64,000 nt of DNA, taken from positions 9,766 to 73,765 of the forward strand of contig JBBDTI010000031.1 of NCBI GenBank assembly GCA_040904565.1. The letters are read 5' to 3'. Positions 42,096 to 58,959 of this stretch are shown in pieces. Every line of letters starts with the position of its first letter. Position 1 is the stretch's first letter. This DNA is from Rhodothermales bacterium. GTDB taxonomy: Bacteria > Bacteroidota > Rhodothermia > Rhodothermales > VXPQ01. Below the pieces are notes generated by a model. That model worked only from the letters and a program-made list of their open reading frames with translations, searched no databases and was not told the origin of the DNA. The position numbers and the translations under genes were made by a program.

Positions 42096-43067
42096 TTACT
42101 GAGACCATTCCGTCGGTTCTCGGTCCCATCGGTGCTCCGCAAGGCGATCGAGGAGGTCCGCGTCGAGGCCGCCCTTATCGCTGGCGCGCATGTTGGCTTC
42201 CACGTGGCGCAGCTTCCGCATGCCGGGGATGACGGTCGAGACCGTATCGTTCGAGAGGATGAACCGGAGCGCCATTTCGGGCAGGTCCATCTCGCCGGGC
42301 ACGAGCGGTTTCAGGGCATCCGCATGCTCGACGCTCGGGATGAGGTTCTCCGGTACGAAATACGTGTTGCGCCAGTCGCCTTCCGGCCAGGTCGAGTCCT
42401 TTGTCAGCTTGCCCGTAAGCGTGCCTTCGTCGAATGGAACGCGCGCGATGACCGCTACGTCGTGGTCCCTGCAGGCGGGGAAGAGTTCGTCTTCCGGAGC
42501 CTGATCGAAAATGTTGTAGATAACCTGCACGGAGTCGACCAGTCCGCTCCGGACGGCCTTGACGCCGTTCCACGGCTCCCAGCGATTGAGGCTGATGCCG
42601 ATGGCGCGGATGAGGCCCTGGCGACGGAGGTCGTCGAGTTTCCCGTACCACCGATCATCATCCACCCAGCTGTCTTCCCAGACGTGCAGCTGCATCAGGT
42701 CGATGTGGTCGAGTCCGGTGTTTTTGAGGCTCTCCTCGACGCACGCCTGGATGTAATCGGGTGGAAATACCTCGTCCAGCGTGAAGCCGCGCCGGCTGGG
42801 CCACTCCCGGTTCTTCGGGGGGACCTTCGAGGCCGTATAGAGGGTTTTACTGGGATGCTGCTGAACAAGCCTGCCAAGCAGTTTTTCACTGTGTCCTTCG
42901 CCGTATGCCAGGGCGGTATCGAAGAAATTGCATCCCAGTTCGATGGCACGATTCAGCGAGCGCAGCGACTGCTCGTCGTCCGAATTCTCCCATCCTCCCA
43001 TACCCCACATGCCGTAACCGACGTCACTGACCTGCCATCCTGTTCGTCCGAATCGGCGATAGTTCAT
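42096..43067 (-). CDS. aldo/keto reductase
   Basis: [24 protein letters not shown]..., [30 protein letters not shown]. This is the AKR family pattern. Confidence 0.9.
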
Positions 43068-44974: not shown

Positions 44975-46009
44975 AGTGCCTGACGGCACTGTTCCTTGAC
45001 GCGACTGAAAACTCTGGGCTGCATGAGGATGCCCGTGCACTGATCGTAAGATCAGTCAGGAGATGCGGCAATCGAACGGCAGGCGGTGCCGGTTGGTCTG
45101 AAGGGGTTCGCCCTCGCAGGCTTTCTGGAACGGCTGCCGGTTTGGATGCATGCGTATCCATTCGCTCACAGACGCGCTGCTTCGGCAGTTAAGTGTGAGT
45201 CGGGTGGAATCGCCAAGCCTTCTCGTCGTGGACCGTGGCTTCGGCCGCCGGTCCCCTCGGTTTCGGCCTTCGGGTCGGCCGAACGGAAGCGACGGATGGT
45301 GCGCATCAGTCCCGCGCGATGCTATGAAGCGATCGGCTGAAAAGCCGTCTGCGGAGAGCGGCGTTTGTTGATGCAGTGAGCTGGAGGATGTTCGGTGGAG
45401 GCCGGACGCGTGATGAAACCGTCTGTCGAAGGACGACGGTGGAACGTGTCCCGGTCGGTGAAGCCGGTATTCGCCACGTGCTCGCCGAGAGCGGTTTGTG
45501 ACGAAGCGGCCGTACCTTTGGGTGCGACGTGGATCCAACCGCTCGATGACGCGGCCAACCGCTCGCTGCGGAGAACGACGTTCGACGAACCAGGCGGTGC
45601 CGGATCGACTCCGGAGCACGGACGCTCTATGACGCGACGGCAGCAATGCCGCCGCTGAGAGCCGACGTGTGATGAAGGAGTGGATCGGCCAGATCAGCCG
45701 GGCGTGGAGCGCGAGCGAGAAAACTGAACGTGCGGGCAATCAAAGGTCCGTGGCTGCTAAACCGTCTGCCCATGCGGTTTAGACGTATCGCTGCCGGGAA
45801 ACCGACAGCCGTGCGCACGGCCACCAGTGCCGGTCTTCGTACCGGCAGGAGAGTTGGCCTCCCCACCGATGGTAGGTTGCTGTTTCGGCAGCGAACTGCA
45901 TCGAGGGAGGCCGGTCGCGCTGAGGGATAATTACATGGCGCACTCCGGATGCGCCGCACGATTGCACACGATTCTCTGATGCCGCCTGCTCTCGCAGACG
46001 GCATTTTTT
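44975..46009 (+). ncRNA. candidate large (~1.03 kb) structured non-coding RNA of unrecognised family
   Basis: The unit is bounded by the consensus promoter (44940-44968) and an intrinsic terminator (45979-46009), and only junk ORFs occur in all six frames. It has many short perfect hairpins capped by stable tetraloops. UUCG loops: CUGC-UUCG-GCAG 45177-45188, GUGGC-UUCG-GCCGC 45235-45248, GGCC-UUCG-GGUC 45265-45276, GCUGU-UUCG-GCAGC 45879-45892. GNRA loops: ACUGAUC-GUAA-GAUCAGU 45039-45056, CGGCA-GCAA-UGCCG 45638-45651. There is also an 8-bp enclosing helix, GGCCUCCC 45856-45863 paired with GGGAGGCC 45905-45912. The ends are approximate. Confidence 0.45.
45979..46009 (+). terminator. intrinsic (Rho-independent) terminator
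   Basis: AUGCCGCCUGC-UCUC-GCAGACGGCAU forms 10 bp with one C/A mismatch, followed by a U-tract running through 46009. It lies 80 nt upstream of the next gene start at 46090. Confidence 0.7.
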
Positions 46010-46089
46010 ATGACAGGGCTTCCCGTTGGGCGCGGAATGGACATTCCGTTCGCATGTTTCCCTCCATCAGCCGTTAGCTGGTTTTCGGC

Positions 46090-46740
46090 ATGTCCCTCGC
46101 CGCGCGCGTCCACGTCATCGTCGTCAACTACCAGACTCCGGACCTGCTGGATACGGCCGTGCGGTCGTTCGTCGAGCACTACCCGGACGTTCCCCTGCTG
46201 ATCGTCGACAACGGGTCCCGCGACGCGTCACGAGACGTCATCGAGACACTGCATGCTGACCTTGCGAACGTGTCGTCCCTCCAGTTGGAGGAAAACCGCT
46301 ATCACGGGCCGGCCATGGACCTGGCCCTGCGGCACGTAGATGTCGACTACGTGTTTTTGCTGGACAGCGACACGAAGACCATGAGGGGAGGTTTCCTCGA
46401 GGAGATGCTGGCGCGATCCGAGGAGCCGAACGTATACGGTGTCGGAAAGATCGCGGAGGTAAACGAACGTGGATTTGCCGCGACACGGGGCATACCCGTG
46501 CTCGTGAGCGCCTACATGCTCATCGATCGAGAACGCTATCTCGACCTTCCGCCGTTTATTCACCACGGTCTTCCCGCCCTTCAAAACTTTCGCGCGGCGG
46601 CCGAAGCAGGATACCGACTCGAACCCTTTCCCGTAGACGAGTATATCGAGCATTTCGGACGGGGGACGGCCGAGCGGTACGGATACGGGTTGGGCTGGAA
46701 GGGGCGCCTCGATTACCTGCTCAACAAGCTGGGCTTTTAG
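46090..46740 (+). CDS. glycosyltransferase family 2
   Basis: VHVIVVNYQTPDLLDTAVRSF...LLIVDNGSRD...FLLDSDT is the GT-A/GT2 N-terminal pattern with a DxD-like motif. Confidence 0.8.
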   Translation: MSLAARVHVIVVNYQTPDLLDTAVRSFVEHYPDVPLLIVDNGSRDASRDVIETLHADLANVSSLQLEENRYHGPAMDLALRHVDVDYVFLLDSDTKTMRGGFLEEMLARSEEPNVYGVGKIAEVNERGFAATRGIPVLVSAYMLIDRERYLDLPPFIHHGLPALQNFRAAAEAGYRLEPFPVDEYIEHFGRGTAERYGYGLGWKGRLDYLLNKLGF

Positions 46741-46824
46741 GCTTCGCGCGATGACGGCGCTATCGCATGGCGCTACCACATGGCACTATCGCCTTGCGCC
46801 TCTACCGATCGCCGCAGCGGAACA

Positions 46825-48186
46825 TCACCACGGCAAACTCGAGGTCGGGCGGCCTACCACCCCCTCCATTTCGCGGAATTCCTCGGCATACCGTTTCACC
46901 TCGTCACGTTCGATCACACCCCGTTCGGTCGCGTACGCGTCGATGAGGTCTGCCGGCACGCGTTCGAAGATCTCGGTTCTAACATCTACGCGGTCCGACA
47001 CAAGCCCGACGCTGGAACGATCCGCTCGTTCTTGCTCGGCAGCGACATCTCCGAACCGGCCGTCAAGTTCTCGCTTTACGGCGACGTCCTCGGAGCGGTC
47101 GTCACGTTCTTGCTTCTCGGACGCCTCCCCGGAGCGATCCGATTCATTCGTCGCGAGCAGCTTGTCGAGGGCAACCGCTACATAGACAGGCACGCCCCGA
47201 CCGCGTGCGACGAGTGCGGCCAGGCGTGAGCCTACCTTGTTGACGATCGATCCATCGGGGAGCAGGGTATCGCACCCCAGCAGCACGGCATCGAAGGGCG
47301 GTGCCGAAGCCATGGACGCGTCGGGGATGAGCGTCACGTCGAGCCGTGCCCGATCGAGCCGTCGCGCTACCTCCACACCTTCGCCACCCGGAAGCGAGAC
47401 GGCCACGACGACGCGTGCCCGCGTCGACAGGAGTGCATCCAGCACCGTTCCCGAACGGGAGACCGTAAGCACCGTTGCGCCGCCGATGAACTCGGCTGCC
47501 GCACTCGATGCAGCGTGGTCGGACGAAACGGCTTCCCGAAGCACGGTATGAATACACGCGGCCCGTTCGCCGCCGTCCGGCATCGACGTCAGGCACCGAC
47601 GCATCGCACGGTTGATCCGGTTCCGGACGGCTGCCATGGACGGACGAGCAGCGACCAGTTCCTTCGCGAGCGCTCTAATATGAGTCCGGGAGGAGGCCTC
47701 GGCCGCGCGATCGCGGAGAACTTCGAGCGCCCGCAACGACAGGTAGGCCGAACCGTGTTCACGATCCGTTCGCACGTCAGCTACCGACGGCGCGACGGCC
47801 CGGTACGACCGCCACAGCTCCGGAACGGTCGCCCGCTGCAGTATGTCGGGCGGGGCCGCCCATTCCCCCTCGGTCGACTCTTCATTGAGCGCGGGCTGTC
47901 GCCGGCGCCCGTCGAAGAGGTACGGATGCACCGTCCACGCGATGCCGAGTTCTTTGTCTTCGACGGAGAAGGGGTTGCCGCGTCGGACGAGTTCCACGTC
48001 GGTGAACCCCGTTTCCTCTTCGATCTCGCGACGAGCCGCTTCGTCCGGGTCGCCTTCGGCATGCCCGGCTACGGCTCCCCACCTTCCGGGATAGGACCCC
48101 ACCTCGCTGCTGCGTCGCAGCAGCAGGACCTCGGCCTCGGCTCGAACGAAGCACGTTACGACGTGCCTGACTTCAAGATCGACCAT
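46825..48186 (-). CDS. fusion protein: N-terminal NUDIX hydrolase + C-terminal eIF-2B alpha/beta/delta-family (ribose-1,5-bisphosphate / MTR-1-P isomerase-like) domain
   Basis: The N-terminus has a Nudix box, GAVAGHAEGDPDEAARREIEEETG. The remainder matches the IF-2B family layout (ARPSMAAVRN..., TVLTVSRSGTV, LLGCDTLLPDGSIVNKVGS, VPVYVAV, ...FERVPADLIDAYATERGVI), with an acidic insertion before the last strand block. Confidence 0.8.
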   Translation of the reverse strand: MVDLEVRHVVTCFVRAEAEVLLLRRSSEVGSYPGRWGAVAGHAEGDPDEAARREIEEETGFTDVELVRRGNPFSVEDKELGIAWTVHPYLFDGRRRQPALNEESTEGEWAAPPDILQRATVPELWRSYRAVAPSVADVRTDREHGSAYLSLRALEVLRDRAAEASSRTHIRALAKELVAARPSMAAVRNRINRAMRRCLTSMPDGGERAACIHTVLREAVSSDHAASSAAAEFIGGATVLTVSRSGTVLDALLSTRARVVVAVSLPGGEGVEVARRLDRARLDVTLIPDASMASAPPFDAVLLGCDTLLPDGSIVNKVGSRLAALVARGRGVPVYVAVALDKLLATNESDRSGEASEKQERDDRSEDVAVKRELDGRFGDVAAEQERADRSSVGLVSDRVDVRTEIFERVPADLIDAYATERGVIERDEVKRYAEEFREMEGVVGRPTSSLPW

Positions 48187-48191
48187 ATGCT

Positions 48192-49067
48192 TCAGGCGTC
48201 GATGAAGTGTTCCAGTCGTTTTACCTCATCCTGCGACAGCGTCACGTCGGCCGCCTTCGCCGAATCCGCAATGCTCTCAGGCCGCGACGCGCCTGGGATG
48301 GGGAGGACGACGGGAGATTTCGCTCGCAGCCACGCGAGCGCGATACAGTGTGGGGAACGTTCCCGCGCCTGGGCCATCTCGACGAGCACGTCGTGCTCGC
48401 CGACCCGCTTGGCACGCCGTCGTCCACCGACGGGTCCCCAGGGCAGGAACGTGAGTCCCTCTCGGTCACAGTACTCCAACGTGCCGTCCTCGAGCGGCTT
48501 TCGGTGCCAGAGTGAGAACTGGTTCTGGACGGATACGACGCGGATCACGTTACGAGCACGCTCGATTTCCTCGACGGAGTAGTTCGATACGCCCACATGC
48601 CGGATCAATCCCTCATCGACGGCTTCGCGCACCGGTGCCAGGGAGGCCTCGATGGATACGTCCGGATCCGGTGCGTGATGCTGCCACAGCTGGATGGGTT
48701 TGCCGCCCAGTGCCTCGACGCTCTCGCGGATGGTGCGCCGAAGGTGATCCGGATCACCGTTTCGCGGCCATCCGCCCTCGTGGCGCATCAGTCCGCCTTT
48801 CGTCGCGACGACGACACCGGATCGATCGCCTTCGTACGCCTCTAGGGCTTCCCGAATAAGCCGTTCGTTATGGTGCTTGTCTGGTTCATCCAGACAGTAC
48901 GAGTCGGCCGTATCGATGAATGTAATGCCGCTGTCGAGGGCACGATGCACGACAGAGAGGGCCTGATCGCGCGGCGGCCGTCCATCGATCGAGAGGTGCA
49001 TCCCGCCGAAGCCGATGACACTGACCTCAAGATCCGTATCGCCGATCGTCGTGGTGGGCAGTTTCAT
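48192..49067 (-). CDS. aldo/keto reductase
   Basis: TDLEVSVIGFGGMHLS, FIDTADSYC, IQLWQHH, VGVSNYS. The stop lies only 5 nt before the NUDIX-fusion start. Confidence 0.9.
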   Translation of the reverse strand: MKLPTTTIGDTDLEVSVIGFGGMHLSIDGRPPRDQALSVVHRALDSGITFIDTADSYCLDEPDKHHNERLIREALEAYEGDRSGVVVATKGGLMRHEGGWPRNGDPDHLRRTIRESVEALGGKPIQLWQHHAPDPDVSIEASLAPVREAVDEGLIRHVGVSNYSVEEIERARNVIRVVSVQNQFSLWHRKPLEDGTLEYCDREGLTFLPWGPVGGRRRAKRVGEHDVLVEMAQARERSPHCIALAWLRAKSPVVLPIPGASRPESIADSAKAADVTLSQDEVKRLEHFIDA

Positions 49068-49166
49068 GGTGGGCGTCGTCTCGTTGTTTCGGTTCTCCCG
49101 CGGATTTGGTCGTCTCGCCGTATTGGTCGTTTCGAACGTCCGGCCTCTACTTCTTCAAAACGTCGA

Positions 49167-50048
49167 CTACAGCGCAACGTTCAGCTTCTTCCCCAGAAGC
49201 AGATGCGCCAGGGCATACAGCTCCAGTCCGAATGGAGGATACCCCAGGTATCCCAGGAGGGGCATCTCAAAGAAGTACAGGAATTCGACGCCGGGCGTAC
49301 GATACGTCCATCGCGGGAAGGAGTACATATTCCAGAGCTCCCAGAAGAAGCCGCAGATGAGGGCGCCGAGCGCGAGGGACAGGGCGGGGCGCCAGTCGCA
49401 GCGGTCCAGCGCATCGAAGAGGGAAGGTTGCCCCGTCCACAGGTTAGCGGCCTCGATCAATCCGAAAAGCATCCCCCAGATAAATGGATAGAAGCCGTCC
49501 GGATACATGTAGATAAGCAGGGCCGCAGCGACGCCGGCCGAAAAGGAGGCGGCCGCCGTATGACGGCTGGCTGGTATCCGCGGGCCCGTTCGACGTTCAT
49601 CCACCCACCGAAAGGAACGGACGAGTTCAGCCGTTTCAAACACGGCCGGCATCACCGTCGAAAAGGCTACCGTACAAAGTATGGCATATTCCAGGTCGGA
49701 AAACAGCTCGGCGCCGACGTACGTCCAGTTCTGCGTGTGGAGATTGATCATCTCGAAGAGCCACCAGGCCGGTGCCGATGCGACGAACAGGGCGACGAAA
49801 CCCCTGCGCGAGCGCGACAGGATGGACGCTCCTCGTCGCAGGTGGACGAGCCCGTCGACGGCAAGGATGTAGCCGAGCCACAGCGGGAAGAAGAAGACGT
49901 GGGTACGCGGTCCGTCGACCGTCCAGTTCAGCGCCCAGAACGCCAGGACCAGGGCCGCGCCGGCCCAGCCGTGAACGGGAAACCGGTGCTCGGCGACGCG
50001 TTGGGGGTCCGGAGCAGAAGACACGGGTCTATTCGATCCGTTTCTCAA
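49167..50048 (-). CDS. hypothetical polytopic membrane protein with internal duplication
   Basis: About 8 hydrophobic segments. It has a repeated motif W(W/E)LFEMINLHTQNWTY / FWELWNMYSFPRWTY. The track start is TTG at 50048, overlapping the GNAT stop by 20 nt; an in-frame GTG at 50024 is an alternative. Confidence 0.6.
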   Translation of the reverse strand: MRNGSNRPVSSAPDPQRVAEHRFPVHGWAGAALVLAFWALNWTVDGPRTHVFFFPLWLGYILAVDGLVHLRRGASILSRSRRGFVALFVASAPAWWLFEMINLHTQNWTYVGAELFSDLEYAILCTVAFSTVMPAVFETAELVRSFRWVDERRTGPRIPASRHTAAASFSAGVAAALLIYMYPDGFYPFIWGMLFGLIEAANLWTGQPSLFDALDRCDWRPALSLALGALICGFFWELWNMYSFPRWTYRTPGVEFLYFFEMPLLGYLGYPPFGLELYALAHLLLGKKLNVAL

Positions 50049-51168
50049 ACATCGCGTATTCCTTGTCTACGACGCCCCCGAACGATTCGAGCGCGTTGCG
50101 GAGCCGCTTGTTGCTGTCGAGCACCCAGCTCATCTCGCTTGCATCGTAGCCGTTCCGGGGGCCTTCCTGAATGACGGCCAGATTGAGGACGGCATCCAGC
50201 CCGCGGCCCTGGTATTCGCGGAGCACGCCCATGAGCGGCGTCCGGCACTCGTAGAGTCCACCCCACTTCGCATAGGCAAGCATCTTCGGCAGCCCGAACG
50301 GCAGCAGGCGACCGTCGTCGACGTGCCGGAGCAGCTGGTTTATGTTTGGGAGGGAGATCGAGAAGGCGACGGGCCGTCCCGCATCCTCCAGGATAAAGAC
50401 GATGTTCGGGTCGACGATCTGCTTCATCTCGCCGGCGAGCTGCCCGAATTCGCCTTCCGTCATCGGAACGTGCCCCCAATTGTTCGACCAGGCGTCGTTG
50501 TAGATGTGGAGAATGGTCCTGGCTTCTTCCTCGAACCGGTCCATATCGATCGTCCGAACGCGGATGCCCGGGTTGCGCTGCTTGACGATTTCCACGCCGC
50601 GTTCCAGCCTCTCCGTCGACGCGTACTTCTTGTGGATGTAATACGCCCACATCGTCATGGCGCGTTCGAATCCGTGGCGCTCCAGGAAGGCCTCGTAATA
50701 CGGCGCGTTGTAGGGCATGAGCACGGACGGTTCGCGATCGAATCCACCTACGAGGAGTCCGGCCGTGTCGTTTAGAGACGGGTTCGCGGGGCCTCGTACC
50801 CCGGTGAGGCCTTCGCTCCTGAGGCGCTCGATGGCCGCGTCGAGGAGCGCTTCCGCTACGGCATAGTCGTCGATGGTTTCGAAAAAACCGAAGAAACCGT
50901 TACCATCGTCGTATTTCTGCAGGTGCATGCCGTTGACGACGGCAGCGATGCGGCCCACCACGCGACCGCTCGCATCTTCGGCAAGCATCGAGTGGATGGC
51001 GCTGTGTTCGAAAAAGGCGTTCTTCCTGGGATTCAAGACACGGCGCACGTCACGCCGGAGGGGTGCGACCCAGGCGGGATAGTCGCGGTAGAGATCATAC
51101 TGGAAATCAATGAACCGCTTAAGGTCTTTCTTCGAGGAGACCGGGCGGACCGTTACGCGTGTCGACAT
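50029..51168 (-). CDS. GNAT-fold acyltransferase-like protein (~379 aa family)
   Basis: MSTRVTVRPVSSKKDLKRFIDFQYDLYRDYPAWVAPL..., and a C-terminal acyl-CoA N-acyltransferase-like core (VLREYQGRGLDAVL). Its function is unknown. Confidence 0.7.
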   Translation of the reverse strand: MSTRVTVRPVSSKKDLKRFIDFQYDLYRDYPAWVAPLRRDVRRVLNPRKNAFFEHSAIHSMLAEDASGRVVGRIAAVVNGMHLQKYDDGNGFFGFFETIDDYAVAEALLDAAIERLRSEGLTGVRGPANPSLNDTAGLLVGGFDREPSVLMPYNAPYYEAFLERHGFERAMTMWAYYIHKKYASTERLERGVEIVKQRNPGIRVRTIDMDRFEEEARTILHIYNDAWSNNWGHVPMTEGEFGQLAGEMKQIVDPNIVFILEDAGRPVAFSISLPNINQLLRHVDDGRLLPFGLPKMLAYAKWGGLYECRTPLMGVLREYQGRGLDAVLNLAVIQEGPRNGYDASEMSWVLDSNKRLRNALESFGGVVDKEYAMFEKRIE

Positions 51169-51281
51169 GAATGGCAGATCGGTGAGCGATGTGAAGCGCG
51201 TCCCGAAATGAAGACGCGCCCTATGAAGATAGGAAGGGACGTACAGCGGGTCGAGGAAGCCGATCGCGATGGGCGTCCTGT

Positions 51282-52574
51282 CTAGACGGCCCCGTTATTA
51301 CTGATGATTCCGTGCTTGCGGCCTACGCGTTTGAATGCCTCAAGGATGAAGTCGAGCTCGTCGTTCGTGTGCGTCGCCATATAGGAGGTGCGCATCAGGG
51401 ACTGACCCTGCGGCACGGCCGGTGGAACGACGGCGTTGACGAATACACCCTCTTCCAGGAGGTCGCGCCAGAATTTGAAGCACGTCATCATGTCACCGAT
51501 GACCACCGGAATGATCGGCGTCTGGCTCGTCCACACATTGAATCCCAGGTCACGAAAGCCCTCACGCATATAGTCTGAGATCTCCCAGAGCCTGTCGAGT
51601 CGTTCCGGCTCACTTTCCAGGATATCGAGACACTTGATGACCGTCGCCACGTTAGCGGGCGGCATGGAGGCGCTGAAGACGTGTGTAGAGCTGCGATGCC
51701 GGATGAACTCGATCACGTCCCGATCGCCGACGCAGAATCCTCCCAGTGAGGCGAAGCTCTTGGAGAACGTGCCCGTCACGAGATGCACGTGATCGTCGAG
51801 GTCGTGATAGGCCGCCGACCCACGGCCCCCGGGCCCGATGACGCCGCATGCATGGGCATCGTCGAGCATCAGCGCGGCACCGAACTCTTCGGCCAGCCCC
51901 ACGAGTTCGGGTACCTTCGCGATAACCCCGCTCATCGAGAACACGCCGTCGGTGACGATGAGCTTTCCGGCATCCGGGCGATCGTCGTGCACCTTTTTCA
52001 TCTGGTGGCGCAGATGGTTCATGTCGTTGTGCCGGTAGCGCAGCGTTTCCGCGTGGCTGACCTGCGTTCCCGCCACGATACATGCGTGGTTGTCCTTGTC
52101 GGAAAAGATGAAGTCCCCCTTGCCGGTTACGGCCTGAATGACGCCCTCGTTCGTCATGTATCCTGTCGAAAACAGGACGCAGGCGTCGCGGCCCATGAAG
52201 GCGGCCAAACGCTCTTCGAGTTCGATGTGGAGGTCCAGTGTGCCGTTCAAGAACCGGCTTCCCGTGCAGCCCGTGCCGTACTGTTTGATCGCCTTTGCGG
52301 CCGCCTCCTGGACGCGCGGGTCGGACGTCAGGCCCAGGTAGTTGTTCGATCCGGCCATGATGATTTCACGGCCGTTCATAATGGCGCGCGATCCCTCATT
52401 TCGCTCGATCTGGCGGAAATACGGATACAGATCTGCCTTCTTGACCTGTGCGTAGTCCCCGGATTCATCGAAGAACCGGTGGCACTTATCGAAAAGTGTC
52501 GGTTCGCCTCGCAGCGTTTGAACGTCCGACGGCGGCGTGCCGTCGTCCTCCTTGTGAAAGTCAGGCGTCGTCAT
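51282..52574 (-). CDS. alpha-oxoamine synthase, serine palmitoyltransferase-like (PLP-dependent)
   Basis: The start is taken at ATG 52574 (MTTPDFHKEDD...). Signatures: SNNYLGLTSDPRV, DKDNHACIV, DDAHACG, and the PLP lysine context TGTFSKSFASLGG. The long N-terminal extension (LYPYFRQIE) is typical of SPT/cysteate-acyltransferase-type enzymes rather than BioF. Confidence 0.85.
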   Translation of the reverse strand: MTTPDFHKEDDGTPPSDVQTLRGEPTLFDKCHRFFDESGDYAQVKKADLYPYFRQIERNEGSRAIMNGREIIMAGSNNYLGLTSDPRVQEAAAKAIKQYGTGCTGSRFLNGTLDLHIELEERLAAFMGRDACVLFSTGYMTNEGVIQAVTGKGDFIFSDKDNHACIVAGTQVSHAETLRYRHNDMNHLRHQMKKVHDDRPDAGKLIVTDGVFSMSGVIAKVPELVGLAEEFGAALMLDDAHACGVIGPGGRGSAAYHDLDDHVHLVTGTFSKSFASLGGFCVGDRDVIEFIRHRSSTHVFSASMPPANVATVIKCLDILESEPERLDRLWEISDYMREGFRDLGFNVWTSQTPIIPVVIGDMMTCFKFWRDLLEEGVFVNAVVPPAVPQGQSLMRTSYMATHTNDELDFILEAFKRVGRKHGIISNNGAV

Positions 52575-52705
52575 GTTCGACTCGAGGGTGATGCTGGGAG
52601 GGTAGCGGTGAAGGTGCGAGAAGAACAATTCTTACGAGCAAGGGCACCCTAAGTGCTGGAGACCATGCGGTTAGCAGGTATAATATGCAATATCTTGCTC
52701 GCATC

Positions 52706-53851
52706 TTAATCGAACCTTCCTGTCGACGGCGTAACGCCGGCGGCGGAAGCGTCTCGCTTCCGTGCACGCGGCGGAGTTGATACGGCGGTGTGTCGCGAAA
52801 GGACTCCTTCGATCGCTTCGACAGCGTGATCGTTTCCGCAGGTAGCGTGGGCCTCGAGTCGTTCCTCGAAGGTGGAGTGACCGTCCAGAAAGGAGGTCAC
52901 GTCCTCCTCCGTTAGCGGGCGGTCGATGACGGCCTCACCGAGACCCTCACGTTTCAGAAAGAGTGCATTGAGCGTTTGTTCGAAGATCCCGCGGTTGGGA
53001 ACGACCAGCAGGGGTTTGCCCAGAAACAACGTTTCGCTCGTCAGCGTGAAGCCCGCCGTCGAGATGACGCCGCGGCTCGATGCCAGATCGCTGAGGAATT
53101 CGTCGATACACGGTTCCTTGAATCGGACGTTCGGGTAACGGTGGCCTCCGCCGGGCGGGTCGAAGTTATATGCGACGAACGGTGCGTCTACGTTTCGCAG
53201 CGTGCGAAGCACGTGTTCGGCGCCGTCCGTGTGATTGTAGTATACAAGGATGTGTTCGCCGCGCGTCGGGACGAGGTTCTGAACCGCCGGTCGGATGATC
53301 GGAGGCACGAGCTTTACGCGATCGGGGCGGCGCAGGGGTGGATAAAAGAAAGAAGTGATGAGCGTGAGCTCTGGAGAGGGCGGGACGATCAATCGGATGA
53401 CGAGTCCCGTGAGGCCGGCTCCCCATCGATACTGCCAATCGAGACGGTACCTGGTTTCCGTTACAATCTGCTGGTGATTGAACGAAACCACGGGGACCCC
53501 GAGGCGGTCGGCCGCGCGGTGAGAGAACGCCTCGAAATCGGTGATGACCAGGTCGGGATCGACGATCGCGAACGTATCAGCGAGATCCGTCACGATCCGA
53601 TCCAGATGAACGATCGAATCCCAGTTGGCATGGACGGTCTGAAAGATGCACACCTTGTTTCCCTCCATCACCTGTCTAAGTGACGGCACCTCAATGACCG
53701 CCTCATCCTTCATCGTAAGAATGTCTCGGGACGTACCGCCGCAGCAGAACACGATCTCGTGGCCGCGTGCCCGCAGCGCATCGGACACCGCCATGACGCG
53801 CGACGCATGTCCCCGACCCTGTCCACTTAAAGCGTAAATGATTCTAGCCAT
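52706..53851 (-). CDS. GT-B glycosyltransferase (MGT / TIGR00661-like)
   Basis: The start is taken at ATG 53851 (MARIIYALSGQGRGHASRVMAVSDALRARGHEIVF). The C-terminal half carries the donor-binding pattern (ISTAGFTLTSETLFLGKPLLVVP). Confidence 0.75.
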   Translation of the reverse strand: MARIIYALSGQGRGHASRVMAVSDALRARGHEIVFCCGGTSRDILTMKDEAVIEVPSLRQVMEGNKVCIFQTVHANWDSIVHLDRIVTDLADTFAIVDPDLVITDFEAFSHRAADRLGVPVVSFNHQQIVTETRYRLDWQYRWGAGLTGLVIRLIVPPSPELTLITSFFYPPLRRPDRVKLVPPIIRPAVQNLVPTRGEHILVYYNHTDGAEHVLRTLRNVDAPFVAYNFDPPGGGHRYPNVRFKEPCIDEFLSDLASSRGVISTAGFTLTSETLFLGKPLLVVPNRGIFEQTLNALFLKREGLGEAVIDRPLTEEDVTSFLDGHSTFEERLEAHATCGNDHAVEAIEGVLSRHTAVSTPPRARKRDASAAGVTPSTGRFD

Positions 53852-54125
53852 ATATATCCGGGGCTCTACGTGGCGGCAGGACCGTTCGAGTGCTCCTCTT
53901 CGTGTGGCGTGTCCGGATAAAAAAGAGGCGGACTGTCTTTCCAGAGATGACCCTCCAGAGACGATCCGCCATCCATACGCCAAATGTTACGGTTTCCCAA
54001 TTATAAAGGTTCGAATCCCCACCGGGCGTCCGGCTGCACTCTCGAGCAGCCGACGGGGTGTGACGCGCCCGGATGGATCATCGCATGTATCATCGCGCGT
54101 GTGGCCGTGGGGATGATGCCGGCCG

Positions 54126-54749
54126 TCACGGCCTCAGTCGCAGGCTTGCGGCAAATCCGCCAACGGCGGGACGTACCGACAACGACAGGTCTTCACCGAC
54201 GTCGAAGTCGAGGAGATGGGCGCTGACGTAGGCATCAAGTATCGAGAGCCCATAAAATAAGCCGCTGCCAATGTACAAAAGGTCACGGTTTCGCCGAAGA
54301 TTGTCGCGATTCTGCCGGAAGAGTGTGCTCAGGCGACCCTGAATGCCGTCGGCATCTTCCGGCGTCAGCCCCAGGTCGGATATGAGATCCAGATAGTCGT
54401 CTTCATAGGACGTCGGCACGTCGATGGTGGCCGACTCACGGACGATCCAGAGATACGCGTGGCGATATCGCAGGTACCGATGGTTGACGAAAAGCGCCGA
54501 TCCGGCGAAACCTGCCAGCCCGCCCCATACGACGGGCAACTTGTAGTACTGGTGATTGTAGAGCTGTCCCCAGCCCGGGGCCGCGGCAGCCCGCCACAGG
54601 GCACCGCGAGGGGAATGGTCGGCCGGCAGAGAGGAGTCCGCCGTGTCGCCGATCGATTCCTGCTGGGCAACCGACGATCGAACGACCAGGAATGAGGTCG
54701 CCGCGACCGCCACCACGGCGATGCGCAGGACGACGATCCGCTTCCGCAC
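54126..54749 (-). CDS. DUF5683 domain membrane protein
   Basis: The GTG start at 54749 lies 2 nt after the parB stop. VRKRIVVLRIAVVAVAATSFLVV is a signal/TM segment. The motif PGWGQLYNHQYYKLPVVWGGLAGF is present. The conserved parA-parB-DUF5683 order of Bacteroidota-type genomes is kept. The upstream part of the track ORF overlaps parB and was dropped. Confidence 0.7.
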   Translation of the reverse strand: MRKRIVVLRIAVVAVAATSFLVVRSSVAQQESIGDTADSSLPADHSPRGALWRAAAAPGWGQLYNHQYYKLPVVWGGLAGFAGSALFVNHRYLRYRHAYLWIVRESATIDVPTSYEDDYLDLISDLGLTPEDADGIQGRLSTLFRQNRDNLRRNRDLLYIGSGLFYGLSILDAYVSAHLLDFDVGEDLSLSVRPAVGGFAASLRLRP

Positions 54750-54751
54750 GG

Positions 54752-55675
54752 CTATTCCTCTAGGATCAGTTCGAGTAACCGTTCGAGATCTTCGTTGGAA
54801 TAGTACTCGATTTCGATGTGTCCCCCGTCGCTCTTGTGTCGAATCTTGACCTGCGTACTCAAGAAATTTCGGAGTCGGGTCGTATAGTTTCTCACTTGAA
54901 GCGAATCCCTGTCCACCAATTCCCGCCCTGTAGGTTCGGTCTGTTTCGGCGGTTCGGTAGCCTCTTCCTGCGCTCGATGCCATCGGCGCACCTTCTTTTC
55001 AACGTCTCGAACGGACAGATCCTGGTCCTCTATCTCTTCGATCAGGCGTTGCTGAACGTCTTCGTCGTCGACGTTTATCAGCGCACGGGCATGTCCGACC
55101 GATACCATCCCGTCTCGCAGACTGGCCTGGATCCGCGCCGGGAGTTTCAGCAAGCGCAGGAAGTTGGCGATCGTGGCGCGCCCCTTTCCGACCTTCTCCG
55201 CCACGCCTTCCTGCGTGAGGCTGCATTCGTCGATAAGCCGCTGGTATCCGAGGGCGACCTCGATAGGATTCAACTCTTCGCGCTGGATATTTTCGACGAT
55301 GGCCATCTCGAGCATTTCTTCGGAGTCGGCCTCGCGCACGTAGGCAGGAATGCGGCTTAAGCCGGCTCTGCGCGCGGCGCGGAGGCGACGTTCCCCGGAG
55401 ATGATCTCGAAGCCGTCCTCTGTCGTGCGCACCGTGATGGGCTGGATTACCCCGAGCTGCTTGATGGACTCCGCCAGCTCGTCGAGAGCCGAATCGTTGA
55501 AATCCTTTCGCGGCTGGTAGGGGTTCGGCCGTACGAGAGATACGTCGACCTGAGCGACGCGACCGGCGAGGCGGTCGCGGCTGGTTCGCCGAGGCGCTTC
55601 CTGCTCGTCGTCCTCCTCGTCTGACGGAAGGATTGCGCTCAGGCCGCGTCCCAGTGCTGCTTTTTTCGATGCCAT
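54752..55675 (-). CDS. parB: chromosome partitioning protein ParB
   Basis: LGRGLSAILP, VRPNPYQPRK, IQPITVR, ISGERRLRAA and an HTH (LTQEGVAEKVGKGRATIANFLRLL). Confidence 0.95.
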   Translation of the reverse strand: MASKKAALGRGLSAILPSDEEDDEQEAPRRTSRDRLAGRVAQVDVSLVRPNPYQPRKDFNDSALDELAESIKQLGVIQPITVRTTEDGFEIISGERRLRAARRAGLSRIPAYVREADSEEMLEMAIVENIQREELNPIEVALGYQRLIDECSLTQEGVAEKVGKGRATIANFLRLLKLPARIQASLRDGMVSVGHARALINVDDEDVQQRLIEEIEDQDLSVRDVEKKVRRWHRAQEEATEPPKQTEPTGRELVDRDSLQVRNYTTRLRNFLSTQVKIRHKSDGGHIEIEYYSNEDLERLLELILEE

Positions 55676-55696: not shown

Positions 55697-56560
55697 CTAG
55701 TTCGTGTACCCGTTGGCGGCTTCGGATGAGCCGGAGAGGGCCGCCCCGCCGCTCGGTTCGCCGATGGGCTCCTGCGCTTCGTCGGGATCGAGAAACGACT
55801 CGCTGTTCTTGATGATCTCCCTCGCCAGCGCGATATAGTTTCGTGCCCCGACGCACGTAGCATCGTAAAGGATGACCGGCTTTCCAAAGCTGGGCGCCTC
55901 TGAGAGGCGGACGTTACGCTGAATGATCGTGTTGAAGACCTTGTCTCCAAAATAGCGGCGCACCTCCTCGGCGACCTGATTCGAAAGTCGCAGCCTGGTG
56001 TCGAACATCGTCAAGAGCACCCCCTCGATCTCGAGGTTCTTATTGAGGTGCTGCCGTACGATCTTGATCGTGTTGAGCAGCTGCCCGAGCCCCTCCAGCG
56101 CAAAATATTCCGCCTGAACGGGGATAAGCACGGAATGCGAGGCGGTCAGCGCGTTGACCGTGAGCAATCCAAGAGACGGAGGGCAGTCGATTATGACGAA
56201 GTCATACGAGCGCCGGACACTGCGCAGCGCACGCTTGAGAATGCGTTCTCTTTCCGCCACGTCAACCATCTCGATTTCCGCTCCGACCAGGTTGATGTGG
56301 CTCGGAACGACGTCGAGAAAGTCCATTTCCGTCGACCGCACCGCGTCTTCGACGGGAATGTCGCCGATCAACACTTCATAGGTCGAATTGCCCGGCGTCT
56401 TGTGTTCGATCCCAATGCCTGAGGTGGCGTTCGCCTGGGGGTCGACGTCAATAAGAAGAGTCGGGTGCTCCGTCGCAGCCAGCGATGCCGCGAGGTTAAT
56501 CGACGTCGTCGTCTTACCTACGCCGCCTTTCTGGTTGGCGACCGAAATGACTTTTCCCAT
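55697..56560 (-). CDS. parA: chromosome partitioning ATPase ParA/Soj
   Basis: [25 protein letters not shown] (deviant Walker A), [20 protein letters not shown]. It has a ~35-aa acidic C-terminal extension. Confidence 0.95.
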
Positions 56561-56811: not shown

Positions 56812-58959
56812 GTGGTGTCGTTTGCGTACTCTGTGAGCGTCTCTACGAATCCATTTCTCTCATCGTACATCGTGGCCCGCCGATTCGTACTGAAATCAGA
56901 TGATCGTGACGGGCTGGACGGCCAGCTCACGATCGATTATGCGGCGGAGCTGAACGAACAGCAGCTGGCAGCGGCCACGGCGTCGGGGGGACCCATACTG
57001 GTCGTCGCGGGCGCCGGTACCGGCAAGACGCGGACGCTCGTATATCGGGTAGCCTATCTCGTCGAGACGGGCGTCGAGCCGGATCAGATCGTGCTGCTGA
57101 CCTTCACCCGTCGGTCTGCCCGAGAGATGCTGACCCGCGCCGCAACGCTGCTCGACGGTCGCTGCACGCGCGTGGCCGGAGGGACGTTTCATTCGTTCTC
57201 TCTCGGCATCCTGCGCCGTTACGCCGGTATGCTCGGCTATCCTAACCATTTCAACATCCTGGATGCGGCCGATGCGGCTGACGTGGTCGACGTGCTGCGC
57301 ACCAGGAAGGGGCTGCATCGGACCGACAAGCGCTTTCCCCGGAAAAAGACCATCCACACGATCTTCTCGTCCGCCACCAATCGCGGCCAACCGCTCGAAG
57401 AGTTGCTGGAGTCGAAGTATCCTCAGTTTTTCGAGTTCGTCGACGAACTCGCGGAGCTTCGAGGCGCCTATGCCGAATACAAGCGGGATCACGGTCTGAT
57501 GGACTACGACGATCTGCTGCTGCGCACGCTGGAGCTCTTCGACGATCATCCGAACGTGGAGAAGCAGGTCGCCGCCGGCTGCCGTCACGTGCTCGTCGAC
57601 GAGTATCAGGACACGAACCGTCTTCAGGCGGAGCTCGTAGCGCGATTCGCGTCGGTGCACGGCAACGTGATGGTCGTGGGGGACGATGCCCAGAGCATCT
57701 ATCGGTTTCGTGGGGCGGACTTCCGAAACATCTTCGAGTATCCACAGCGATTCGACGGTGCACGCGTGCTCAAGCTGGAGAAGAATTACCGATCTAATCA
57801 GCCGATTCTAGACCTGGCCAACCATCTCATCCGGAAGGCCTCGCGAAAGTATGAAAAGACGCTGCACAGCGACATCAAGGGAGGGGAGCGGCCGGCCGTC
57901 GTCCCGGCGCCCGACGATCGGGACGAGAGCCGCTTCGTGAGTCAGATGGTGCTTCACCTCCGCGAGCAGGGCGTGGCTCTCAACCGAATGGCCGTGCTGT
58001 TTCGAAGCAGCTTCAACTCGTACGATCTCGAGATCGAGCTGAACCGTCACAATATCCCGTTCGTGAAATACGGCGGACTAAAACTGAGTGAAGCGGCGCA
58101 CATCAAGGACGCAGCCGCCCATCTCAAGGTGGTCGAGAATCCGATGGATGCCATTTCGTGGAACCGCGTCCTTCAGCTCCTGGACGGAATCGGGCCGAAG
58201 ACGGCGGCGGATCTCATCGACTGGATCACGGCGGCCGAAGAGGACCCGTTCCTCATAGAAGATCGGCCGTTTTCGCCGCGCTACGTCGATGAGATCAAGA
58301 AACTGTTCGAGATGTTGCGTAAGCTTCGCAACGGCGACCTTGCACTGGTCGACCAGGTGGAAGCCGTCGTCACGTATTACGAACCCATTCTTAAGCGGCG
58401 CTATTACGAGGATTATCCGAAGCGCCTGCAGGACCTCGAGCATTTTGTGGCGCTGGCCGGAAATTTCGAGGAGCGAGGCGCCTTTCTGGCCTCCATGGCG
58501 CTCGATCCTATCGAACTGACGGCGCTCGACGCCGATCCGTCAGAGGAGGATGAGGCGCCCCTCGTGCTGTCCACCATTCATTCGGCGAAGGGTCTCGAAT
58601 TCCATACGGTGTTCATCATTCACGCGCTCGACGGCGTCCTTCCGTCAGGCTATGCCTTGAAGGATCCCGATGCGATCGACGAAGAGCTCCGCCTGCTGTA
58701 CGTGGCCGTGACGCGGGCCGAGGAGAATCTGTTCATCTCGTATCCTATTTTGCAGTATCGGCGGTATCAGGGGCAGTACCTGACCGAACCGAGCCGTTTT
58801 ATTCAGGACGTACCCGATAATTTGCTCGAAGAAATGAAGCTCGTTGAGGAAGAGTCGACCTCGCTCCCCGAGACCGGGGAGGTGCCACTCCTCGGAGGGC
58901 GCGGGCCGGACGACCCGTCGCGGTCGGAGTCCGAATCGGATGACGCATTGCCGTTCTGA
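56812..58959 (+). CDS. UvrD/PcrA/Rep-family ATP-dependent DNA helicase
   Basis: LNEQQLAAATASGGPILVVAGAGTGKTRTLVYRV (motifs Q/I), VDEYQDTN (II), GDDAQSIYRFRGA (III), YRSN, STIHSAKGLEF (V), YVAVTRA (VI). The start is uncertain: the track uses GTG at 56812, and an in-frame GTG at 56872 is an alternative. Confidence 0.9.
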   Translation: MVSFAYSVSVSTNPFLSSYIVARRFVLKSDDRDGLDGQLTIDYAAELNEQQLAAATASGGPILVVAGAGTGKTRTLVYRVAYLVETGVEPDQIVLLTFTRRSAREMLTRAATLLDGRCTRVAGGTFHSFSLGILRRYAGMLGYPNHFNILDAADAADVVDVLRTRKGLHRTDKRFPRKKTIHTIFSSATNRGQPLEELLESKYPQFFEFVDELAELRGAYAEYKRDHGLMDYDDLLLRTLELFDDHPNVEKQVAAGCRHVLVDEYQDTNRLQAELVARFASVHGNVMVVGDDAQSIYRFRGADFRNIFEYPQRFDGARVLKLEKNYRSNQPILDLANHLIRKASRKYEKTLHSDIKGGERPAVVPAPDDRDESRFVSQMVLHLREQGVALNRMAVLFRSSFNSYDLEIELNRHNIPFVKYGGLKLSEAAHIKDAAAHLKVVENPMDAISWNRVLQLLDGIGPKTAADLIDWITAAEEDPFLIEDRPFSPRYVDEIKKLFEMLRKLRNGDLALVDQVEAVVTYYEPILKRRYYEDYPKRLQDLEHFVALAGNFEERGAFLASMALDPIELTALDADPSEEDEAPLVLSTIHSAKGLEFHTVFIIHALDGVLPSGYALKDPDAIDEELRLLYVAVTRAEENLFISYPILQYRRYQGQYLTEPSRFIQDVPDNLLEEMKLVEEESTSLPETGEVPLLGGRGPDDPSRSESESDDALPF

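Follow-up and report, generated by a model that had tools for sequence, protein, structure and literature searches.

Does a protein in which a Nudix hydrolase is joined to a relative of the sugar-phosphate isomerases carry out two consecutive steps of one pathway? The question is raised by a gene on the minus strand of a 64,000-nucleotide stretch from a Rhodothermales bacterium (assembly GCA_040904565.1, contig JBBDTI010000031.1, positions 9,766 to 73,765), which was analyzed as a whole and is referred to below as the window. The fusion gene (46825..48186) encodes an N-terminal Nudix domain and a C-terminal domain resembling eIF2B and ribose-1,5-bisphosphate (R15P) isomerases. In the original prediction, the Nudix domain was proposed to release a ribose phosphate or bisphosphate, for example from ADP-ribose or a compound of the phosphoribosyl pyrophosphate (PRPP) type, which would then be channelled to the isomerase. 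Our analysis points to a different division of labor, to which we give about an even chance of being correct: an active Nudix pyrophosphohydrolase carrying a non-isomerising, dimerising module that binds pentose phosphate or nucleotide and derives from an R15P-isomerase-like ancestor.

The fusion was called as a single open reading frame (ORF) of 453 aa with an ATG start, and both domains scored above the Pfam gathering cutoffs. The NUDIX profile PF00293 matched residues 9-124 (47815..48162, minus strand) with an E value of 5e-12 and 46 bits against a cutoff of 21, and the IF-2B profile PF01008 matched residues 143-426 (46909..47760, minus strand) with an E value of 6e-36 and 124 bits against a cutoff of 22, covering 279 of the 280 profile positions. 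The two-domain architecture first proposed for this ORF was thus borne out. A whole-protein AlphaFold2 model built with the family alignment had a predicted local distance difference test (pLDDT) value of 90.2 and a predicted template modelling (pTM) score of 0.88, and with these values the two domains are predicted confidently in their placement relative to each other.

The product was 100% identical to an NCBI entry named "NUDIX domain-containing protein [Rhodothermales bacterium]". At the nucleotide level, the window agreed with GenBank contig JBBDMF010000058.1, from the Rhodothermales metagenome-assembled genome (MAG) GCA_040878475.1, at 99.96% over 14 kb with 4 mismatches. A G-run on the minus strand (46860..46864) reads GGGGG in the window and GGGG in that contig, and this difference alters the C-terminus: the product of the GenBank record is 443 aa long and ends in ...EMEGW, whereas the window ORF has 453 aa and ends in ...EMEGVVGRPTSSLPW. 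Because the terminal Trp of the 443-aa version occupies a near-invariant column in the fusion family, the frame of the record appears more credible for the last residues, which casts doubt on the final 11 residues of the 453-aa ORF. This 1-nt indel is what might be cited for an assembly or frameshift artefact joining two genes, yet it is the only indel against the deposited contig and lies at the 3' end, leaving the domain junction unaffected. The same single ORF also occurs in complete genomes of many genera with a conserved linker, and the pTM score argues in the same direction; an artefact is therefore regarded as already refuted and is given virtually no weight.

The window gene truly belongs to a family of Nudix/eIF2B-like fusions that is widespread and catalogued but functionally uncharacterised. 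Among 5.8 billion proteins searched, more than 1,200 matched at E <= 0.001, and 119 of the 120 best protein matches carried the NUDIX and IF-2B pair. An exhaustive search of representatives gave about 212 clusters (50% identity) at E <= 1e-30, and a scan of one genome per species located the fusion in 434 species genomes. The hosts include haloarchaea, Rhodothermales (Salinibacter and Salinivenus), Gammaproteobacteria (as MAGs), Acidobacteriota and Deinococcota, and many complete haloarchaeal chromosomes hold the gene, in genera including Haladaptatus, Halomarina, Halosimplex and Salinibaculum. Both domains were matched in all 80 of the genome loci fetched, which shows that the relatives do not encode the two halves separately; the fusion was a single ORF in 74 of the 81 loci in which ORFs were called, and the inter-domain linker was highly conserved in the family alignment. 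The earlier suggestion that the arrangement may be new for bacteria does not hold, since the architecture is widespread in bacteria and already annotated. Bacterial and archaeal relatives alike were approximately 44-56% identical to the window protein, a similarity that points to transfer between domains of life.

A comparable domain content has been described in fungi. A 2025 survey in BMC Genomics reported a newly recognised fungal NUDIX "subfamily B", most members of which carry IF-2B PF01008 and which includes 10% archaeal and 6% bacterial members (PMC12210691); its likeness to the window protein is taken from the description in that paper. The substrates given there for the subfamily are docking-based guesses only (PMC12210691). 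A literature search for biochemical characterisation of the haloarchaeal member HVO_1934 or of any NUDIX/IF-2B fusion found none.

Whether the C-terminal domain could act as an isomerase was considered from its closest structural relatives and from its pocket residues. Its membership of the IF-2B family was upheld by Pfam and by the R15P isomerases being its best profile matches in the PDB. With the single sequence as query, the best PDB match was PH0440 (1vb5; E 8e-14); with a profile of 42 family members, PH0208 (E 1e-34) and TK0185 came out on top and PH0440 was level with them (E 2e-33). Foldseek comparison of the model returned 1vb5, 5yfs and 3a11 at E values of about 1e-18, in keeping with the IF-2B fold, a helical bundle at the N-terminal side followed by a Rossmann-like domain. 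PH0208 of P. horikoshii and TK0185 of T. kodakarensis are R15P isomerases (EC 5.3.1.29) that have their fold in common with the window domain; PH0208 retains its first 20 or so residues at the place where the window protein has the Nudix domain instead. In the R15P isomerase of T. kodakarensis, the catalytic residues are Cys133 and Asp202.

Pocket residues were mapped by aligning the family profile to PH0208 and reading the result against the residue roles given in PMC5789824. Retained positions, with the PH0208 residue named first, are Gly23 of the phosphate loop (Gly145 in the window protein), the 1-phosphate ligand Arg65 (Arg181), the 5-phosphate ligands Ser137 (Ser245) and Lys240 (Lys342), the catalytic Asp204 (Asp306), and the sugar ligands Asn214/Lys215 (Asn316/Lys317), of which Lys215 also contacts the 1-phosphate. 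Changed positions are the catalytic Cys135, which is Ser243 in the window protein, and the 1-phosphate ligands Arg22 and Gln166, which are His144 and Glu269. The codons for S243-R244-S245 (47452..47460, minus strand) lie in the motif TVSRSGT, which aligned to THC135HS137KA of PH0208 and to THCNAG of MtnA, the methylthioribose-1-phosphate (MTR-1-P) isomerase; the D306 codon (47269..47271, minus strand) corresponds to Asp204 of PH0208 and to Asp240 of B. subtilis MtnA. An hhalign comparison with MtnA of B. thuringiensis likewise placed S243 at Cys160 (THCNAG) and D306 at Asp240 (GxD), the numbering being tied to B. subtilis M1Pi and checked against 2yrf.

These replacements characterise the family as a whole. 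In the alignment of 42 members, S243, S245, E269, D306, N316, K317 and K342 were invariant (42/42) and H144 was present in 41; among 74 proteins from the genome loci, the position of the catalytic Cys was Ser in 72, the motif was not found in 2, and Cys occurred in none. The R15P isomerase equivalog TIGR00511 scored 52.2 bits against a cutoff of 314.1, with two of the four 1-phosphate ligands expected for it (Arg22, Arg65, Gln166 and Lys215) replaced, and the MtnA equivalog TIGR00512 scored 48.1 bits against a cutoff of 279; no NCBIfam equivalog came near its cutoff for either the Nudix or the IF-2B domain. Of the two catalytic residues whose loss would speak against an isomerase, the Asp is kept as D306, whereas the Cys is lost, being Ser243 in 42/42 members. 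The engineered PH0208 mutant C135S binds R15P and cannot convert it (PMC5789824), and the natural sequence of the window protein resembles this substrate-trapping mutant. With the Cys replaced by Ser, two 1-phosphate ligands changed and the C135S enzyme inactive, a working sugar-phosphate isomerase is not supported. The domain looks like a conserved 5-phosphopentose pocket with a remodelled C1 side, not like an R15P or MTR-1-P isomerase, and Ser243 and the altered 1-phosphate ligands make it unlikely that a Nudix product is channelled to an isomerase, as had been proposed.

Relatives that bind ligands are known in this fold. The non-catalytic eIF2B-alpha binds AMP, GMP and ribose 5-phosphate in the homologous pocket (PMC4787765). 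PH0440, an archaeal aIF2B-like protein, is like the window domain in that the catalytic Cys is replaced by Ser (THSFSS), Gln166 is replaced by Glu (SPDYEG) and GAD...NK is kept; it differs in being a stand-alone protein with no Nudix domain and in having Lys, where the window protein has His, at the Arg22 position. The activity reported for PH0440 is binding of aIF2-alpha, a protein that bacteria do not have.

The N-terminal domain retains what appears to be a functional Nudix helix. The Nudix box quoted in the original prediction, GHAEGDPDEAARREIEEETG, was located at residues 41-60; taken over residues 41-61 it reads GHAEGDPDEAARREIEEETGF (48004..48066, minus strand). The description of the domain as complete is correct for the fold and for the catalytic helix, in which REUxEExGU is satisfied by R53-E54-I55-E56-E57-E58-T59-G60-F61, but not for the full Gx5Ex7REUxEExGU spacing: the loop leading into the helix has 2 residues fewer than that of the canonical 3grn, and the Glu of box position 7 has no counterpart. 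R53, E54, E57, E58 and G60 are kept, the last four of them being invariant among 42 relatives. The domain is probably catalytically active, because the metal-binding REx2EE helix is kept.

A model of the Nudix part alone had a pLDDT of 93.8 and matched many Nudix structures, with their alpha/beta/alpha sandwich, at template modelling scores of 0.7-0.8. The closest solved relatives by sequence were a Methanosarcina MutT-like protein, AvrM14, NudI and BdRppH, and the Foldseek neighbours of the model were NudI, BdRppH, MutT1/2, CTP pyrophosphohydrolase, YmfB and Ap4A/Ap6A hydrolases. No ADP-ribose pyrophosphatase was present among the sequence neighbours or the top 50 structure neighbours; an identity as such an enzyme was accordingly rejected, and ADP-ribose, the first substrate suggested for the domain, does not suit a domain that is not ADP-ribose-pyrophosphatase-like. 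Judged by sequence and model, the domain resembles compact pyrophosphohydrolases such as MutT, NudI, RppH and the Ap_nA hydrolases. More probable substrates than ADP-sugars are therefore nucleoside or dinucleoside polyphosphates, 5'-phosphorylated RNA ends or PRPP.

PRPP remains a candidate because its hydrolysis to R15P is reported for Ap_nA/DIPP-type Nudix enzymes by Fisher et al. (2002), a title listed as reference 140 of PMC5389931. Those hydrolases likewise have a compact single-domain Nudix fold, Ap4A/Ap6A hydrolases are among the neighbours of the window domain, and the R15P that such enzymes produce is what the nearest relatives of the C-terminal domain bind. They are not specifically the nearest relatives, however; NudI, BdRppH and MutT-like proteins are equally close.

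In a bifunctional enzyme of the kind first predicted, the Nudix domain would release a ribose (bis)phosphate such as R15P from PRPP and the IF-2B domain would isomerise it to a ribulose phosphate; an aldo/keto reductase (AKR) or other neighbouring oxidoreductase would then act on the product. The R15P isomerases being the best PDB profile matches, the retention of 7 of 10 R15P-binding or catalytic residues including the Asp, the production of R15P from PRPP reported by Fisher et al. (2002) and the presence of Ap4A/Ap6A hydrolases among the structural neighbours are all consistent with it. So are two features of gene order: the fusion of Salinibacteraceae closely precedes the PRPP synthetase gene, and in several lineages non-homologous NAD(P) oxidoreductases adjoin it, namely AKR, short-chain dehydrogenase/reductase (SDR), Gfo/Idh/MocA, 2-hydroxyacid dehydrogenase and iron-containing alcohol dehydrogenase (Fe-ADH). 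Against it stand Ser in place of Cys in every member examined, a change that in PH0208 (C135S) kills catalysis (PMC5789824), and the replacement of the 1-phosphate ligands Arg22 and Gln166 by His and Glu. H. volcanii, moreover, already owns a canonical R15P isomerase, HVO_0966, besides HVO_1934 (PMC8576121). We consider a bifunctional enzyme of this kind unlikely.

The gene-order features do little to change this. PRPP synthetase adjacency occurs in one lineage, across gaps of 128-480 nt and beside a conserved prs-L25-pth block; the fusion of Salinibacteraceae lies between Mrp-NifU on the upstream side and this block on the downstream side. At +/-1, 7 of the 84 distinct neighbour clusters were oxidoreductases, of five unrelated families; at greater distances the proportion was about 9 of 458. 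The families were chosen for the comparison after being seen. In five additional loci that do not belong to the AKR clade (L089-L093), no oxidoreductase was present at +/-1, and one locus had a 2-hydroxyacid dehydrogenase at +2. The oxidoreductase neighbours are a lead only.

In Salinibacter and Salinivenus, ten loci (L053, L056-L059, L073, L075, L083, L084 and L093) had the fusion 128-480 nt upstream of PRPP synthetase, followed by L25 and peptidyl-tRNA hydrolase. PRPP synthetase was the only neighbour obviously tied to 5-phosphoribosyl chemistry, in a single lineage and within a widely conserved block.

A related reading places the protein at an entry or control point of pentose-bisphosphate chemistry, in bacteria and archaea, with the Ap_nA/DIPP-like Nudix domain acting on PRPP or another 5-phosphoribosyl diphosphate compound, the Cys-to-Ser domain serving as a "substrate trap" and oxidoreductases acting downstream. 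The trap, with a C1 site formed by His144 and Glu269, would hold or sense a 5-phosphoribosyl moiety or run a new reaction. We regard this as distinctly unlikely.

The same replacements could also be read as a new active site, with Ser243, His144 and Glu269 serving in some other catalysis, for example hydrolysis or transfer at C1 of a 5-phosphopentose. The three residues are near-invariant (42/42, 41/42 and 42/42, respectively) and cluster where PH0208 contacts C1 and the 1-phosphate, and the remaining pocket is invariant, as an active site would be. The proposal is pure inference from residue identities, however, and PH0440, which is considered non-catalytic, has Ser and Glu at two of the three positions. 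We know of no precedent for Ser/His/Glu catalysis in the IF-2B fold, and such an activity is held to be a long shot.

A role in translation, as an aIF2B-like regulatory factor that binds a/eIF2-alpha and has the Nudix domain as an accessory, has been considered for relatives of the protein. PH0440-type aIF2B binds aIF2-alpha in vitro according to Dev et al. (2009), as cited in PMC4787765 and PMC8576121, and HVO_1934 of Haloferax volcanii was studied as a putative aIF2B subunit ("aIF2Bsu") and had a few co-purified partners (PMC8576121). In the aIF network, however, it had only one or two interactions (PMC8576121), and strains lacking HVO_1934, HVO_2706 or both grew like the wild type in most conditions tested, which the authors took as evidence against a role in initiation (PMC8576121, PMC3828320). 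The invariance of the sugar-phosphate pocket and the frequency of the family in bacteria, which are without a/eIF2, also argue against such a factor; binding of aIF2-alpha by bacterial members is implausible, and the translational role as a whole is very improbable.

What is preferred, at the even chance stated at the outset, is the Nudix pyrophosphohydrolase with a ligand-binding partner domain. The N-terminal domain would hydrolyse a pyrophosphate-type substrate, for which PRPP and nucleoside or dinucleoside polyphosphates are the candidates that fit the anatomy. The C-terminal domain, probably descended from an R15P-isomerase-like protein, would isomerise nothing; it may bind a pentose phosphate or a nucleotide through the retained ligands of the pentose and the 5-phosphate (S245, D306, N316, K317, K342 and R181, with the G145 loop). 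It may also serve as a dimerisation module, as other IF-2B proteins suggest by analogy, and it would either aid substrate recognition or gate the Nudix activity allosterically. A small-molecule role is argued because the family is present in bacteria, which lack a/eIF2.

Several points weigh against this interpretation. The pocket is under strong purifying selection, which would also fit another catalytic role, and R15P isomerases and the non-catalytic PH0440 reach equally high scores with the family profile. HVO_1934 is assigned to the same family as the window protein, with orthology based on annotation, size and architecture: its annotation, two-domain order and length (about 400-450 aa) are as in the window protein. 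Its deletion gave no phenotype in 12 conditions (PMC3828320) and so provides no physiological handle.

Other haloarchaeal members (Halobacterium, Haladaptatus and Halomarina) were 44-54% identical to the window protein over 75-98% of its length, with E values from 1e-90 to 1e-99, and have the TLSRSGT, SxPxxEG, GADxxxxxGxxxNKxG and DK motifs in common with it. The window protein differs from them by an insertion of about 30-40 residues and by its operon with an AKR gene, both absent from the haloarchaeal loci.

The AKR gene of the window (48192..49067, minus strand) encodes a 291-aa, AKR13-like protein (TIM-barrel profile PF00248, E 7e-62, residues 18-288), and its closest solved relative was the broad-specificity AKR13B2 (8hnq; E 8e-47). 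Its tight coupling to the fusion, as proposed, was confirmed in that a gap of 5 nt separates the stop codon, which ends at 48192, from the fusion ATG at 48186; the coupling is, however, confined to one subclade of Rhodothermales. AKR orthologues 57-76% identical to that of the window lie directly upstream on the same strand in L005, L006, L013 and L086, and these loci, together with L085 and the window, have the same context: glycosyltransferase GT1, a serine-palmitoyltransferase-like gene, genes for the 379-aa and 293-aa proteins described below, AKR, fusion and glycosyltransferase GT2. The pair also occurs in an MlaD/ABC context (L087) and in an Mrp-NifU context (L088); with three different contexts, the pair has survived rearrangements within the subclade. 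In L085 (3509-3988), the AKR is cut to a 159-aa fragment beside an intact fusion gene, so the pairing is dispensable even there. About 75 other fusion loci had no such AKR, and the fusion was absent in all 7 informative metagenomic loci that had AKRs 56-64% identical and enough downstream sequence. In the window, the AKR would be co-transcribed with the fusion; the pairing is a local one and no hallmark of the system.

Downstream of the fusion, at a distance of about 4 kb, is the gene for another AKR paralogue (323 aa; 42096-43067, minus strand), and its relative position is conserved in L005, L006, L013, L085 and L086.

An acidic insertion near the C-terminus had also been pointed out. It is present at about residues 346-385 (47032..47151, minus strand) and is net-acidic, with 13 D/E and 7 K/R among 40 residues, but it is lineage-specific and was modelled with low confidence (pLDDT 46-57). 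It lies in a variable loop preceding the conserved NPxF[ED]xTP motif; in the family alignment, no member other than the window protein and its closest relative had it, a few others having unrelated insertions in the same loop, which varies throughout the IF-2B family. Inside the insertion is a 23-nt direct repeat, the copies of which (47014-47036 and 47092-47114) are 78% identical and 78 nt, or 26 codons, apart. The repeat is mirrored in a peptide echo, EKQERDDRS / EQERADRS. This weakly suggests a local duplication as the origin of the insertion; a two-copy repeat so short could be due to chance.

ORFs were called and clustered at 81 loci, and no operon partner was conserved across lineages. 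Haloarchaeal neighbours of the fusion were Metallophos_2, CofE, a luciferase-like gene and 2-hydroxyacid dehydrogenase. A divergent Fe-ADH adjoins the fusion in MAGs of Gammaproteobacteria, an SDR overlaps it in one Rhodothermia MAG, and a Gfo/Idh/MocA gene follows it by 27 nt in a Trueperaceae MAG. In two Acidobacteriota-type loci (L022 and L090), the fusion overlaps by 4 nt a downstream gene for the protein-repair enzyme protein-L-isoaspartate O-methyltransferase, which is translationally coupled to it in that lineage.

Upstream of the AKR in the window are four co-directional genes on the minus strand (49167-53983). They encode a Glyco_trans_1_3 glycosyltransferase (52706-53983); a serine-palmitoyltransferase-like enzyme of the BioF/Kbl family (51282-52628), whose best NCBIfam match, SerpalmtaseCFB, reached 495 bits, below the cutoff of 640; an unannotated 379-aa protein (50029-51168) with only a weak GNAT match; and an unannotated 293-aa protein (49167-50048) with no Pfam match, the gene for which overlaps the preceding one by 20 nt. 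The block is syntenic in L006, L013, L085 and L086 and could be a lipid cluster of the sphingolipid or sulfonolipid type. Further along, parA (55697-56560, minus strand) and parB (54752-55675, minus strand) adjoin a UvrD-type helicase gene (56812-58959, plus strand), and a DUF5683 gene lies downstream of parA-parB on the minus strand, an ordinary chromosome-partition context.

No Rfam family reached its gathering score anywhere in the 64-kb window, and a riboswitch or RNA leader for the fusion was rejected on this ground and because its upstream gaps are mostly shorter than 150 nt. A promoter and terminator scan of positions 46000-54500 gave nothing informative, the sigma-70 consensus being poorly suited to this phylum. 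A role in anti-phage defence was likewise rejected, as PADLOC returned only noise with E values above 1e-3.

These results add a Rhodothermales member to a family that spans three domains of life, occurring in haloarchaea, in several bacterial phyla and, by its description, in a fungal Nudix subfamily. The useful outcome is a negative one: given Ser at the catalytic Cys position throughout, fusion proteins of this type are not to be annotated or modelled as R15P or MTR-1-P isomerases, nor do they count as evidence for an archaeal-type pentose-bisphosphate pathway in bacteria. If a ligand-trapping relative of the isomerases does steer a Nudix enzyme, this would be a prokaryotic parallel to the proposed evolution of the eIF2B regulatory subunits from the same enzymes, and it would give a handle on an unassigned step of nucleotide or PRPP housekeeping in halophiles. 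The fusion family as a whole is a reasonable biochemical target.

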